The notes: generated by a model not told the origin, from the letters alone. A stretch of 32,000 nucleotides of DNA from an uncultured Clostridia bacterium (GCA_949280815.1 CASDJM010000004.1:15867-47866), one strand, 5' to 3'. Positions 6,899 to 20,113 are shown, counted from the stretch's first letter. Translations and numbers: made by a program.

Positions 6899-7147
6899 TT
6901 AATCTCGTCTTTCTAATTCATTTTTTGAATGCATTTTTTCATAAAATTCTACTTTTTTAGATTGTTTATTATATTTAAAATATGCTTGTACTTTATTTTT
7001 ATCGATTAACTTTATTGTAGTTTTATCATATAAATATAATTCAATTTCATCAAAATTAAATGTGCTTTTTAAATATGAAAGTACTTTAAACTGTTCTACT
7101 GTTTCTACTTGATTTTTGTTTATATTTTCTTTATTAAGATGCTCCAT
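6899..7147 (-). CDS. small hypothetical protein, translationally coupled to the upstream recombinase
   Basis: The ORF track starts it at 7168. The ATG at 7147 has GGAGG (7157-7161) 9 nt upstream and overlaps the recombinase stop by 14 nt. No recognisable domain. Confidence 0.5.
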   Translation of the reverse strand: MEHLNKENINKNQVETVEQFKVLSYLKSTFNFDEIELYLYDKTTIKLIDKNKVQAYFKYNKQSKKVEFYEKMHSKNELERRD

Positions 7148-8939
7148 AATTTGCTTCCTCCTTACCATTTTTGCTTATATTTTTTGGTATTAATGTTAAA
7201 TTATCTATCATGTTTCCCTTTTCAATATATGGGCAATTTATAACTCCATCTGTATAAAAATACTCTTGCAATAGTTCTACATATTTTTCTAATTCTTCTT
7301 TTGAATATTCTCCAATTTTTTCATCTGAAAATACAAAATAGTCCTCTTTTAATTTTTCTAATTCTGCATGCTCAATTGCTTCTTTATAAATAAATCCAAT
7401 GTTATTATTTTTTAAGATTTCATATAAATATTTTATATATTCTTTGCTACTTTTTGAAATAAACTCTTCTGTAAATTTAACATTTGTTATTTCAATATCA
7501 TAATTTTTGTTTCTTTTTATCTCTATGCAATCAATTAATTTTTTTATTAATTCTTGTTTTGTTTTTCTTTTTAGACTATTAAAAATAAATGTAAATGCAA
7601 TTTTGTTGTTAGCTATAACTTTATCATTTTCTACATCACATTCTAATTTTTTTAATAGTTCTATTGTGTACTCTTTAAAATCATTATTTGGATCAATTTG
7701 CTGTTTCTTCTTATGCAAGTTTTCAATTTCTTTTTTAATTACATCATTTTTATGGTTAATTGTTTCTACATTTAAGGTAGAACTTAAATATAAATCTACT
7801 AATTTTTTCTCTTGCATTTTTAGTTTTTCAATGGCTTTTTCTATATTCTTAATGTCTTTTGTTTTAGTTGAATTACATACTATAATTTCACTATTCATCT
7901 CGTACATATATCTTGTTAATTCATTTAAAACTCTAACTAATTTTTGTTCTATTTTATCTGAACTATAATGTAATCCTTTCGATTTGCAATTTGGATTCTT
8001 ACAAGTTAAATGATAATATATTTTTTCTTTTGGTGTTCTACTATACTTAAAAGAATTTGTAGAAGATAGTATTTTTCCACAAGTAGGACATCTTACAATA
8101 CCAGTAAACAAGTGAATATGCTCTCCATAATTTGAATGTTTATTTCTTTCTAATACTTTTCTTGTGATATTCCATGTTTCAATATCTATAATTGGCTCAC
8201 AGTAATTTTCAACTCTTAATATATCTTGTGGTTTTCTACAATATTTACCATATTCAAATATACCAATATAAATAGAATTAGTTAGTATTTTATAAACTCT
8301 ATCACTTGTCCATTTTCCTGTTTTTAAATAAGCATTGCTATCTTTCATAACTGTTGCAATTCCTCTACTTGAATTACCTTGCTTACATAGCTCAAATATT
8401 TCTTTAACTACTTGTGCTTCAATAGGTTCTACTTTTAAATGACCTGTTTCTATATTTCTAATATATCCATAAGGTGCTTTTGCTGGATGTACCTTTTCTA
8501 ATGCCATTTCTTCCATTGCTCTTTTTGTTCTTGCTCCAATTTCTTTTCTTTCTCTTTGTCCAAATACTAAATTCATACCAAATATCATTTCACCATTTGC
8601 AGTAGATACATCATAAGGCTCAAGTATTAACTCGATTTTAACATCGTGTTCTTCACAATAATTGAGTAGCCAAAAGCCATCATAGTTGTTTCTAGTAAGT
8701 CTATCTACTTTAATAGCAACTATTACTTCAATTTTATGTGATTTAATATCTTTTAAAAGTCTTTGCATTTCTGGTCTCATTAAATCTTTTCCTGAATGTC
8801 CTGCATCATTGTATACGTCTATAATATCATAATTGTTTTTCTCACAATATTCTTTTATCATTCGTAACTGTGAATCAATAGAGTACCCATTATCTCTTTG
8901 GTCATCTGTTGACACTCTTACATAAACTCCACATCTCAT
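7134..8939 (-). CDS. large serine recombinase (phage-integrase type)
   Basis: 601 aa. Resolvase catalytic N-domain (YVRVSTDDQ, VDRLTRN), recombinase domain (YGY...), Cys-rich zinc ribbon (CPTCGK...CKNPNCKS), and a long coiled-coil/C-terminal extension. RBS GAGGAGG lies upstream. Confidence 0.9.
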   Translation of the reverse strand: MRCGVYVRVSTDDQRDNGYSIDSQLRMIKEYCEKNNYDIIDVYNDAGHSGKDLMRPEMQRLLKDIKSHKIEVIVAIKVDRLTRNNYDGFWLLNYCEEHDVKIELILEPYDVSTANGEMIFGMNLVFGQRERKEIGARTKRAMEEMALEKVHPAKAPYGYIRNIETGHLKVEPIEAQVVKEIFELCKQGNSSRGIATVMKDSNAYLKTGKWTSDRVYKILTNSIYIGIFEYGKYCRKPQDILRVENYCEPIIDIETWNITRKVLERNKHSNYGEHIHLFTGIVRCPTCGKILSSTNSFKYSRTPKEKIYYHLTCKNPNCKSKGLHYSSDKIEQKLVRVLNELTRYMYEMNSEIIVCNSTKTKDIKNIEKAIEKLKMQEKKLVDLYLSSTLNVETINHKNDVIKKEIENLHKKKQQIDPNNDFKEYTIELLKKLECDVENDKVIANNKIAFTFIFNSLKRKTKQELIKKLIDCIEIKRNKNYDIEITNVKFTEEFISKSSKEYIKYLYEILKNNNIGFIYKEAIEHAELEKLKEDYFVFSDEKIGEYSKEELEKYVELLQEYFYTDGVINCPYIEKGNMIDNLTLIPKNISKNGKEEANYGAS

Positions 8940-8996
8940 ACAATATTACCTCCTCTACTTAATAGCTCACTTATACACGTTTTGTCCCCCCTAGTT

Positions 8997-9275
8997 TTAA
9001 AATTTTATAAGAATTTGTTTAATTTCCTTGAGATTATATTTTTGTTTATGTTCTTTAATGTAAAAGTTTTTATTAGCTATTTCATTTACTTTATACTCAT
9101 AAATAGTAAGAGTAGATGGATATGTAATTAAATATTTAGTTGGTTCAATGAATTGTAAATTAGTGCCCTTTAAATGCTTAATTTTGCCATTTCTAACTGT
9201 ATAATCATAGCTTTTAATAATTTCCAGTATTTCATCATTTAGCTTTAATTCTTGTATTACTTCAAACTCAAACAT
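8997..9275 (-). CDS. hypothetical 92-aa protein, paralog of 17697-17978
   Basis: RBS GAAAGGAGGG upstream of the ATG. The core NGKIKHLKGTNLQFIEPTKYLI aligns with NGSIRKLEKTNLTYIEPHRVII of the 17697 ORF (11 identities in 26 plus conservative changes). Confidence 0.6.
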   Translation of the reverse strand: MFEFEVIQELKLNDEILEIIKSYDYTVRNGKIKHLKGTNLQFIEPTKYLITYPSTLTIYEYKVNEIANKNFYIKEHKQKYNLKEIKQILIKF

Positions 9276-9323
9276 AAAAAATGCCCTCCTTTCTGGAAAG
9301 AGAACATTTTAAGTATAGATATG

Positions 9324-9359
9324 AAAAAACAACCTACAAACTTTATAGTTCGTAAGTTG
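9324..9359 (-). terminator. rho-independent terminator of tRNA-Thr
   Basis: Minus-strand stem CAACTTACGAAC / GTTTGTAGGTTG (two mismatches), 6-nt loop, followed by TTTTTT. Confidence 0.7.
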
Positions 9360-9367
9360 CTATAAAT

Positions 9368-17978: not shown

Positions 17979-17989
17979 TTGTAAATATT

Positions 17990-18017
17990 TGACATTTCTT
18001 AAAATCGTAGTATAATA
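17990..18017 (+). promoter_or_regulatory. near-consensus sigma-A promoter upstream of the recombinase leader
   Basis: TTGACA (17990-17995), 16-nt spacer, TATAAT (18012-18017). Confidence 0.7.
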
Positions 18018-18127
18018 TAATCAATAAAAAATTTATATTTGCTCGGCAAGAGCTAGATATATGAGTACTTTGAAAAAAATTATATTATATTGCATTATTA
18101 TATTTTAGTTTATAATAGATGGATTTT

Positions 18128-18172
18128 AGAGATGTCAGTAGTACTCGTATTGTACTTTGATGTCTCTTTTTT
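18128..18172 (+). terminator. terminator/attenuator hairpin directly upstream of the recombinase RBS
   Basis: AGAGATGTCA-gt-AGTAC, loop tcgtatt, GTACT-t-TGATGTCTCT, then TTTTT (18168-18172). The GGAGG RBS starts at 18181. Confidence 0.6.
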
Positions 18173-18193
18173 GTTAGATTGGAGGTTTTAGAA

Positions 18194-20113
18194 TTGAACG
18201 AAGAAAAGAAAAAATGTGGATTGTATATGAGAGTTTCCACCGAAGACCAAGCTCGTGAGGGCTTTAGCCTTTCAGAGCAAAGAGAAAGATTAGAAACTTT
18301 TTGCAAGTTTAAGGGGTATGAGATAATAGACTACTACGAAGATGCAGGAATAAGTGCCAAAACTGGTAATCATAGACCAGAGTTTGAAAGATTAAAAGAA
18401 GATATTAAGTCTAAAAGGGTAAATACCATTGTTGCTTTAAAATTAGACAGAATAACAAGAAGTATATTTGACTGGGAAAATCTAATAACTTTTTTAGATG
18501 AAAATAATGCCTATTTAGATTGTGCAAACGATGAAATAAATACTACAACTGCAAATGGCAAAATGATTTCAAGACTTTTAATGAGTGTAAGTCAAAATGA
18601 AATTGAGAGAACTAGCGAAAGAACAAAAGTAGGACTAGCAGGAGCAATAAAGTCAGGACATATTCCTCACGTTGCCCCATTAGGCTATAAACACGAAGAT
18701 AAAAGATTAGTTATAGACTACTCTACCAAAGATATTGTAGTTAGAATATTTAATTTATATTATAATGGCTATTCTTATCAGAAAATAAGCAACCTATTCA
18801 ACGAAGAAAAAGTATTAGAAAAAGATAACTGGCGAGATTCAACTATACAAACTATTCTTGAAAATGAAATATATAAAGGCGATTTTATTCACGGAAAAAG
18901 GACAAAGCACCCAACTTATTATGAAGATGTAGTAGAGCCTATTATCTCAAAAGAAATGTGGGCAGACTGTCAAGTACAGAAAAAGAAAAATTCTAGGAGC
19001 TACCAAAGAACACTAACCTACTTATATTTGCAAAAGTTGAGATGTCCTAAATGCAATAGAATTTTAGGTGGAAAAGCAACTACAAAGAAAAATGGTAATG
19101 CTTACTTCTACTATTATTGTAATGATTGCAAAATTGAATTTAAAGAAAAAGTTATCAATGACTATTTCAATCAGTTTATCAATGAGTTAGTAGAATATGA
19201 CTCTGTTGTAAATCAATTCTTCTTGCCTATGATAAAGCAAAAATTTGATGAACCTAAAGAACAATTGGAAAAAGAAATAAAGGAGCAAAATAATAAACTT
19301 GAAAGAATTAAAAAAGCCTATATTAACGGAGTTTTTGAACTAAAAGAATATAACGAAGAAAAGAAAATTGTTGAAACAGCAATAAGTGAATTACAAAATA
19401 AACTAGAAACTACTGATTGCACTGAAGAACTAAAATTTACACCAAAAGATATTTTACTAAAAAGAGATATTGATTTTATTAACAAGGTTAAGCTAGAAAA
19501 AGAATATAAAACAAGAACTAAAACTTGGAAAGATTATACAAGACAAGAACAAGCAGACTTAATAATGAAATATGTTGATGATATTGAATTATCTTTAGTT
19601 GGTAGCGAAGTAATAGTAAATCAAATTAACTTTAGAGACTCAATTTGCAAACCTTGTCAGGAATTATATGATAATGGTTATATAGATACTACAAAACCTA
19701 TGATATTAGGTAATATGCTTGGTAGTGTTAGATTTAGTAATTACTTGCCAGAGGAAGAAGTCGGAGAAATCATTATGAGATTAAGACAATATTATGATGT
19801 TCATTATACAGAAGCAACTTACTATATTGATAGGCAGATGTTTTATTTTAACTTTGCTGAAGATAATAGTGCTATTGTTAGAGTATTTCCTTTAGAAGAT
19901 TATTACAAATTAGATCCAGATAATAAAATGGAAACTTATAGATTTGGAATACTCTACATCAATGAAGAAGATAAATTTCAAATGCAAGAAATTGATACAG
20001 CATTTGACTATATACCAGATGAAACAAATACAAGTGTAATTTATACAAAAGAGCCTATACCTATTTCAGTAGGTGTTAAGCCAGCAAAATTCTGCGAAGA
20101 AAAAGCAGAATAA
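18194..20113 (+). CDS. large serine recombinase (phage-integrase type)
   Basis: The track ORF starts at 18179, inside the RBS. The TTG at 18194 sits 8 nt after GGAGG. Motifs: [16 protein letters not shown], recombinase domain, zinc ribbon CPKCNR...CNDC, coiled coil, ~200-aa C-terminal extension. By eye only roughly 30% identical to the 7134-8939 enzyme. Confidence 0.9.

Follow-up and report, generated by a model that had tools for sequence, protein, structure and literature searches.

The stretch of DNA analysed here, referred to below as the window, comprises 32,000 nucleotides (nt) of contig C4 from the draft genome of an uncultured Clostridia bacterium (G000; 2.12 Mb in 126 contigs), and its G+C content is low, at about 27%. 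An earlier note made from the sequence alone had described two modules within it, each consisting of a tRNA gene, a terminator, a small open reading frame (ORF) and a gene for a large serine recombinase (LSR), and had read them as two members of one family occupying the same type of site. All of these features were recovered by ORF, tRNA and Pfam scans, and a scan of the window with Rfam returned three tRNAs and nothing else. The explanation that accounts best for the observations as a whole, and which is very probably correct, is that the two modules belong to two independent integrative elements of one family, both inserted by their LSRs at the 3' ends of tRNA genes. The "mirror-image" arrangement noticed earlier is thereby reduced to a simpler one: both modules are present, whereas their symmetry merely reflects two divergently oriented target tRNA loci.

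The left element, designated type A, covers 4.3 kb of the minus strand (5061-9370). Its target is the tRNA-Thr(CGU) gene (9368-9443, minus strand; tRNA scan, Rfam and junction alignments), whose encoded CCA at 9368-9370 forms the core of attL. The P' arm follows (9328-9367, minus strand; copy alignments and terminator scan), in which an 8-nt spacer precedes the half-site CAACTTACGAACT (9359-9347), the latter being also the 5' strand of the element's terminator hairpin, and then a T-run; the terminator scan placed this terminator-like hairpin behind tRNA-Thr at 9361-9328. A conserved hairpin, GTTCTCTTTCC-AGA-AAGGAGGG (9278-9310, minus strand), buries the ribosome-binding site (RBS) of the 92-aa ORF, which was paired in all seven elements folded. 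The 92-aa ORF itself (8997-9275, minus strand), the conserved partner of the recombinase, was characterised by alignment, profile search, selection analysis and a structure model. After 57 nt, within which no strong promoter was found, comes LSR-A (7134-8939, minus strand; 601 aa, catalytic motif RVSTDDQ; Pfam and structure search), and its stop codon is overlapped by ORF89 (6899-7168, minus strand), which is conserved with a length of 78-80 aa in several type A elements. A motif of about 60 nt, CCAGCCAGCACTGAAAACCTACTCCCGCA...GGGAATTCCC... (6826-6893, minus strand), separates this core from the cargo, an ATP-binding cassette (ABC) exporter with fused membrane and ATPase domains (5208-6809, plus strand; Pfam) situated between the conserved core and attR. 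The right end (5061-5137, minus strand) is a conserved block, present in 14 such ends from no fewer than 10 genomes, and it contains, in order, an outward promoter TTGAAA-17-TATAAT (5137-5109), the box TAGAAAGAGAAC (5103-5092), the P-arm half-site AGTTCGTAACTTG (5089-5077), 13 nt and the attR CCA (5063-5061). Because this half-site is the reverse complement of the left-arm motif and is followed by 13 nt and CCA at 5089-5061, past the exporter gene, the left element was delimited as 5061-9370. Of the two sizes suggested in the earlier note, about 4.4 kb with the exporter and about 2.5 kb without it, the former is close to the mark; the latter, with an end at the 60-nt motif, was rejected, since a conserved right end with an inverted-repeat arm lies beyond the ABC gene. 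Minimal mobile units consisting of an LSR alone, which had also been raised as a possibility, were not seen, the smallest complete element measuring 3.46 kb (in genome G083).

The right island (17590-31267) consists of a 5.25-kb type B element, with a 93-aa ORF, a 639-aa LSR and a Mob_Pre relaxase, and of an 8.4-kb insert. It lies behind tRNA-Met(CAU) (17411-17487, plus strand; tRNA scan and Rfam) and its target tRNA-Tyr(GUA) (17504-17589, plus strand; tRNA scan and junction comparison), of which the CCA at 17587-17589 is the attL core. The type B P' arm (17590-17696, plus strand; copy alignments) reads ACGACGTATCTGTTCGAAC... and includes two element hairpins, the second with a T-run. The 93-aa ORF (17697-17978, plus strand), a homologue of the 92-aa ORF by BLAST, alignment and profile, is followed by a consensus promoter, TTGACA-16-TATAAT (17989-18016, plus strand; promoter scan), and by LSR-B (18194-20113, plus strand; Pfam and alignment), which has a TTG start 8 nt past GGAGG in a frame open from 18179. 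The unit had been thought to end with LSR-B at 20113, but it extends to 31267. Its distal part carries the Mob_Pre relaxase (28799-30196, plus strand; PF01076 by Pfam, with colinearity to genome G104), the conserved backbone gene ORF99 (30212-30511, plus strand), which has a G104 homologue and no family match, and ORF132 (30594-30992, minus strand), a cargo gene that likewise matches no family. The cargo slot stands out by composition, with a G+C content of 35-37% at 30500-31100 against about 27% around it, and its content is unlike that of the G104 copy. The type B right end (31163-31267, plus strand) was defined by comparison with an empty site and with other copies. It is composed of an outward promoter-like sequence TTGCAA-16-TATACT (31163-31190), the palindrome TTGATATTTGTATCAA, the P arm GTTGTAGATATCTACGTCTACGG and an attR CACCA ending at 31267; the arm sequence GTTGTAGATATCTACGTCTACGGCACCA stops at 31267, and the native terminator of tRNA-Tyr comes directly after it. 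A search for this arm as the reverse complement of the left arm (AGTTCGAACAGA) was negative in type B, and the end was found instead by tracing the contig to the core genes, which on this side resume only past about 32000, and by the empty-site comparison.

Two colinearities establish the extent of the type B element. Joined to the flank after 31267, the tRNA-Tyr end of the window is colinear with the uninterrupted locus of genome G350, native terminator included. A 5.2-kb copy in G104, which lies behind tRNA-Gly and is not interrupted, aligns colinearly with the type B backbone of the window (17587-20299, 28744-30503 and the arm at 31148-31255); it carries the small ORF, the LSR, the Mob_Pre relaxase and the ORF99 homologue. 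The sole break in the latter colinearity, between 20299 and 28744, is the 8.4-kb insert, a nested Tn4451-like mobilisable transposon (backbone alignment and Pfam) with a broken DUF4368-containing LSR, a TnpW-like ORF, a Mob_Pre gene, cargo and TnpV. This transposon is not part of the type B backbone.

Both recombinases match the resolvase domain family PF00239 (E=2e-32 for LSR-A and 3e-33 for LSR-B, with the motifs VRVSTDDQ and MRVSTEDQ, respectively) as well as the Recombinase domain PF07508. The zinc ribbon PF13408 (Zn_ribbon_recom) exceeds its cut-off in LSR-A; LSR-B has no Pfam zinc-ribbon match, yet CPKC...CNDC stands at the aligned position. By domain content, LSR-A and LSR-B are large serine recombinases. 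They are 28% identical over 476 aa, in keeping with the earlier view that distantly related LSRs speak against a recent duplication. The third LSR of the window (20353-22021), which belongs to the nested transposon, is frameshifted, contains DUF4368, detected in the broken ORF at 20353-21807, and adjoins a Mob_Pre relaxase and a TnpW-like ORF (Pfam); DUF4368 was not found by Pfam in LSR-A or LSR-B, and these are only about 25% identical to this TnpX-like protein. Among solved structures, LSR-A matched best the catalytic domain of TP901-1 integrase (E=3e-19), and in the phage collection no LSR was more than about 31% identical. The ORFs of 10 complete elements, which were read individually (the Pfam scan covered the LSRs and a few others), included no tyrosine recombinase, and the LSR is the sole recombinase conserved in the elements. 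G000 as a whole has an unusually high load of such genes, with 37 PF07508 matches in 2.1 Mb, many of them at contig ends.

Comparison of copies locates the junction at a single position. Intact modules of small ORF and LSR lie directly 3' of a same-strand tRNA in four of five cases in G000 (Thr-CGU, Tyr-GUA, Gly-UCC and Leu-UAA), and this arrangement is far above chance. The left copy of the window and that of contig C43 represent type A, and the right copy and those of contigs C11 and C59 represent type B. Similarity between paralogues starts at the base after the encoded CCA, at about 90% in type B and 70-85% in type A, while the sequences upstream are tRNA-Tyr, tRNA-Leu and one non-tRNA junction for type B and tRNA-Thr and tRNA-Gly for type A. 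Since inter-copy similarity begins straight after the CCA, the terminator hairpins behind these tRNAs, which had been attributed to the tRNA genes, are element DNA. In other species, the type A half-site CAACTTACGrAC occurs exactly 8 nt past CCA in about 27 loci, preceded by tRNA-Gly-UCC, Thr-CGU, Thr-GGU, Tyr-GUA or the CCA-ending right end of another element. Matching right ends of the form AGTTCGTAAcTTG-N13-CCA delimit elements of 3.5-8.9 kb in eight other genomes, compared with 4.3 kb in the window and 7.1 kb in C43. In type A the constant core comprises the small ORF and the LSR, frequently joined by an 80-aa ORF, a TnpV-like ORF or both, whereas the cargo lies on the opposite strand and is entirely different in each copy. 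Apart from the ABC exporter and Mob_Pre, all functions of cargo genes were assigned by reading the ORFs by eye; such reading suggested an ABC exporter, nucleotidyltransferases, methylase-like and other defence-like genes. Among 29 small-ORF loci surveyed in other species, 23 have a tRNA on the same strand at a distance of 80-130 nt upstream, and 26 are followed by an LSR. It might be argued that the elements bring the tRNA genes with them as cargo, in the way that some phages and islands do, and that the association, with a junction that is always at a tRNA, reflects this and not targeting. Such an account is very hard to sustain, as similarity of the copies stops at the CCA, the tRNAs upstream differ (Thr, Gly, Tyr and Leu), and relatives free of elements possess the same tRNAs, promoters and upstream genes.

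Empty sites were found for both loci. In the genus, tRNA-Thr(CGU) is located between groEL and ftsY, with only 128 nt to ftsY in G011. The site is unoccupied in G011, G001 and G007, the latter two having native terminators after the CCA; 5.7 kb is inserted there in the window, and in further relatives this very base is occupied by type A, by what remains of a type A copy or by a third type of element, C. For tRNA-Tyr, six relatives have a free site and three have remnants behind it. The type A core (LSR and small ORF) of the window shares 92% DNA identity over 2.5 kb with a copy in G017, whereas groEL of G017 is 81% identical, which indicates horizontal transfer. Of 301 genomes taken from across the order, 156 matched a profile of the small ORF, as did 48 of 74 from the genus, usually with multiple copies. 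The earlier note had allowed that the modules might prove fixed, syntenic and never absent; the empty sites, the attL/attR pairs and this patchy distribution show the contrary and bear out its view of one family at one type of site. For the same reasons, it is most improbable that the modules have become fixed as domesticated recombinase cassettes serving the host, for example in regulated rearrangement near tRNA operons. Such a function might be seen in the adjoining core genes (groESL and ftsY) and in the invariable co-orientation with the tRNA, but the modules are patchy and present in several copies per genome, the empty sites have native terminators, each copy has a different cargo, the similarity of the element between species exceeds that of core genes, and decayed copies are common.

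Elements also occur in tandem. The type A right end of the window directly abuts the type C left-end remnant (TTAAGTAAAATCGTCGCACCAGACGAAA..., 4877-5060, minus strand; sequence comparison), which derives from an older element and is cut by an insertion sequence (IS), and the orders A-then-C, A-then-B and B-then-C recur on other contigs of G000 and in other species. These recurring arrays are what would be expected if each insertion took place beside the tRNA and moved the units already present outward. Two metagenome contigs carry stacks behind tRNA-Gly which include recombinase-less cargo cassettes bounded by the same joined ends. These cargo-only cassettes (L084 8231-10051 and L085 3281-4991) are about 1.7-1.9 kb long, have joined type A ends on both sides and resemble integron cassettes or cis-mobilisable units.

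The sequence common to attL and attR is only C-N-C-C-A (5-6 nt), and the element ends form inverted-repeat arms that are centred, in both types, between tRNA positions 72 and 73. Duplicated cores of 12-54 bp are found with tyrosine integrases, and repeats of 2-8 bp are generated by serine integrases (PMC4701971); the short repeat observed here is typical of the latter. In the type B copy of the window, bases -5 and -6 differ between attL and attR, so the crossover must fall within C-N-C-C-A. The discriminator base is the same in attL and attR in all five type B pairs, which have A or T, and in all nine type A pairs, suggesting that it falls within the crossover; the dyad centre of the arms would place the crossover at C72/N73. 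The motif GTTCG is contained in the element arms and also in the tRNA T-arm, where it is 3-4 bp nearer to the centre. With regard to the discriminator, the empty tRNA-Thr(CGU) sites L017 (G011), L019 (G007) and L018 (G001) have A in two cases and T in one, and each occupied site seen has T (window 9371); either A73 alleles are immune to the elements or insertion swaps the base.

On this basis the following mechanism may be envisaged. The LSR would recombine a circular form, whose attP would consist of the right arm, CNCCA and the left arm, with an attB made up of the tRNA 3' end and the DNA that follows. The attP junctions can be reconstructed as ...GATTCGCTCCA|ATTTATAGCAAC... for type A and ...CTACGGCACCA|ACGACGTATC... 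for type B, with a presumed 2-nt crossover within C72-N73-C-C-A. The recombinase may read GTTCG of the T-arm, a motif that the element arms also contain at a position 3-4 bp more distant from the centre, and such a reading would let one enzyme use several tRNAs. The zinc domains of LSRs bind attP and attB at sites with a known offset, and the displacement of GTTCG by 3-4 bp resembles it. Insertion would leave the tRNA intact and swap its terminator for that of the element. A newcomer would insert beside the tRNA and displace older elements outward, giving rise to tandem arrays.

Several observations weigh against this picture of active, tRNA-directed insertion. No conserved motif was apparent by eye downstream of empty sites, where the B' half of attB should lie, which leaves binding of an LSR dimer there unexplained, and the crossover is placed by symmetry alone. 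The ORFs of the type A element in the window include no relaxase, and its origin of transfer is a guess. A scan of metagenomes for the type A attP junction yielded two contigs only, both tandem arrays and neither a circle. For type C, a related LSR type at the same CCA position, a small ORF could not be demonstrated, all copies examined being decayed or cut by contig ends. The absence of circles from that scan is also among the points that might suggest inactive relics, namely the ends of decayed prophages, satellites or larger islands with leftover LSRs. Many copies are decayed (with a small ORF broken by stops, an LSR deleted or an IS inserted), and the 37 recombinase-domain matches make the genome appear a graveyard of mobile DNA. 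Nevertheless, both copies in the window retain an intact LSR, an intact small ORF and both ends; no phage structural or replication genes are present, and complete units of 3.5-9 kb recur with the same ends and different cargo. The low identity to phage LSRs and the high identity between species, which implies recent transfer, point in the same direction, and the relic explanation is considered unlikely. Insertion of the two window elements by their own LSRs remains the preferred account.

The small gene next to the LSR is the second hallmark of the family. Pairwise BLAST of the 92-aa and 93-aa ORFs aligned 22 aa only (E=6e-6); in full-length alignment they are 32-34% identical, and a single profile retrieves both (E=6e-45 and 2e-34), in agreement with the homology proposed earlier. 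Its ratio of non-synonymous to synonymous substitution (dN/dS) of 0.06-0.20 indicates that the ORF is under purifying selection and is a real gene. Homologues fall into 1478 clusters at 90% identity and 350 at 50% identity. No match to the profile was obtained in a sample of about 400 genomes from the rest of the phylum, and the family appears confined to this bacterial order, as sampled. A confident AlphaFold2 model of the 92-aa protein (mean pLDDT 89.5) consists mostly of beta strands with two helices and has no fold match at E<1 in PDB or BFVD; Pfam and PHROGs returned nothing for the 92- and 93-aa ORFs, ORF89, ORF99 and ORF132, and the plasmid collection contained no match to the 92-aa protein. 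Six copies were found in G000 at the search threshold, five of which are followed by an LSR. A weak seventh profile match (G000:C2:73339-73506, E=1.2e-8, profile positions 27-89) lies outside the known modules. Occurrences without an LSR, which the earlier note had regarded as potentially damaging to its proposal, are visibly decayed copies only.

The 92-aa protein is presumably an accessory factor cognate to the LSR, our best guess being a role in directionality or in expression control. Strict synteny with the LSR and purifying selection provide circumstantial support for a directionality factor. Directionality factors of LSRs share no common fold or synteny (PMC12286644), and the missing fold match is for that reason uninformative on this role. 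Alternatively, the protein may not be a directionality factor but a regulator, or a helper of integration, that is produced along with the LSR and chiefly from the circle, a possibility that deserves serious consideration even though the odds are somewhat against it. No consensus promoter was detected by the promoter scan between the tRNA and the small ORF. The outward TTGAAA-17-TATAAT block, by comparison, is present in 14 of 14 type A right ends despite unrelated adjoining cargo, and the type B right end has a comparable outward site and a palindrome. In the circle, such outward promoters would point across the joint towards both genes, the small ORF and the LSR, and only in that form would transcripts run through attP into them. 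In addition, the box TAGAAAGAGAAC just past the outward promoter, at the predicted start of the outward transcript, is the exact complement of the 5' strand of the hairpin that buries the RBS, and the gap between the small ORF and the LSR in the window type A copy is only 57 nt and free of a strong promoter. Folding, however, predicted release of the RBS in circle-type RNA for only two of seven elements, and an RNA switch specific to the circle is a lead only. Moreover, a transcript from the outward promoter would meet the element's terminator hairpins before it reached the small ORF, and the type B LSR has its own strong promoter, which uncouples the genes and is a better fit to a directionality factor. 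The type B palindrome (31203-31218), with the outward promoter-like site on one side and the right arm on the other, is kept in C11, C59, G104 and G293 and is operator-like.

If all of these proposals are combined, the elements would form a distinct kind of cassette system that takes the end common to all tRNA genes (T-arm GTTCG plus C72-N73-CCA) as a general landing site, replaces terminators and stacks into integron-like arrays including recombinase-less members, is equipped with a circle-sensing promoter and an RNA switch, and employs the 92-aa protein as a new type of LSR partner. That every component of this combination holds is doubtful.

The systems closest in build are Tn4451 and Tn4453 of Clostridium perfringens and Clostridioides difficile (TnpX, TnpV and TnpZ). 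They too are small (about 6 kb) elements of clostridia-like Firmicutes moved by a single LSR, and they share with the present family a Mob_Pre relaxase (here in type B), a TnpV-like gene (here in several type A elements) and cargo in one slot. In the Tn4451 circle, a promoter for tnpX is formed at the joint; here, a complete, conserved right-end promoter faces it. LSR-A and LSR-B differ from TnpX in lacking DUF4368, which marks a clade of TnpX-like, multi-targeting LSRs (PMC10083194), and the present elements carry the 92-aa gene. Their junction is at the CCA end of a tRNA, or at the CCA core of a resident element in arrays, in contrast to the loosely defined GA sites of Tn4451/Tn4453. The true Tn4451-like element nested in the right island allows a direct contrast.

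In the staphylococcal cassette chromosome (SCC; for instance SCCmec), LSRs (CcrAB or CcrC) place cassettes with cargo at the very 3' end of a conserved housekeeping gene, which stays active, and tandem arrays and recombinase-less pseudo-cassettes build up at the site. Insertion at the 3' end of a housekeeping gene and array formation are thus common to both. SCC differs in that its target is a protein gene, rlmH (orfX), with one site per genome, its LSRs belong to another lineage and are often paired, and its elements are much larger and lack the 92-aa gene. Phage-type serine integrases (TP901-1, A118, phiC31 and Bxb1) show the same domain order, with catalytic domain, recombinase domain and zinc ribbon, and dyad att arms; to our knowledge, the known ones integrate inside protein genes or at intergenic sites. 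The present elements are distinguished by the lack of phage genes and by the low identity to phage LSRs given above. From the tRNA islands, ICEs (integrative and conjugative elements) and IMEs (integrative mobilisable elements) of tyrosine integrases they differ in enzyme class, with a core of 5-6 nt and the inverted-repeat arms typical of serine-integrase attP. As regards the IME category, the elements have their own integrase and defined ends, type B has a PF01076 relaxase, and a length of 4-5 kb is too short to hold the genes of a conjugation pore. Surveys of ICEs and IMEs in streptococci associated tRNA 3' ends with tyrosine integrases, and serine integrases with insertion inside protein genes (PMC5357655, PMC4701971), and a large LSR survey groups targets by protein gene, its main text making no mention of tRNA (PMC10083194). 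A limited literature search turned up no account of an LSR aimed at tRNA ends or of this element family, although such a search does not prove that none exists.

A widespread LSR lineage at the CCA end of several tRNAs would represent convergent use of the niche of tyrosine integrases. In about half of the genomes of the order, such elements carry transporters and, as judged by eye, defence- or resistance-like genes, and island finders keyed to tyrosine integrases would miss them. They also account for "terminators" behind many tRNAs. Short, defined att sites and a new conserved partner protein may be of interest to developers of genome-engineering tools based on serine integrases. Recombinase-less left arms, consisting of hairpin terminators behind tRNAs, were noted at L071 (G006), L068 (G348), L074 (G347), the first tRNA-Gly of L057 and L022 (G012), and some are fused straight to a Mob fragment. 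From their sequences, many "tRNA terminators" in the order seem to be scars of elements.

Regarding transfer between cells, type B would be mobilisable by conjugation via its Mob_Pre relaxase, whereas the left element, being relaxase-free, would need functions supplied in trans. In type A, the 60-nt motif, which is kept in 5 of 10 elements and may be a candidate origin of transfer (oriT), includes the GGGAATTCCC palindrome and is also present at C43 4191-4265. Two type A elements have it immediately upstream of an ORF whose sequence suggests a ribbon-helix-helix, MobC-like protein.

All three type B copies of G000 have a Tn4451-like element between the LSR-B stop and Mob (window 20114-20309; C11 about 28000-28290; C59 about 7400-7724). 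The offsets differ and the spacer sequences are unrelated, and no such insertion is present in the G104 copy; the gap between LSR-B and Mob may be a preferred target of the Tn4451-like transposon. Finally, the IS that interrupts the leader of the type C remnant in the window belongs to the rve family (3745-4876, with its ORF at 3770-4768). The type C leader also stops at the ends of contigs C32, C43, C59 and C22, and the IS may share its position in several copies.

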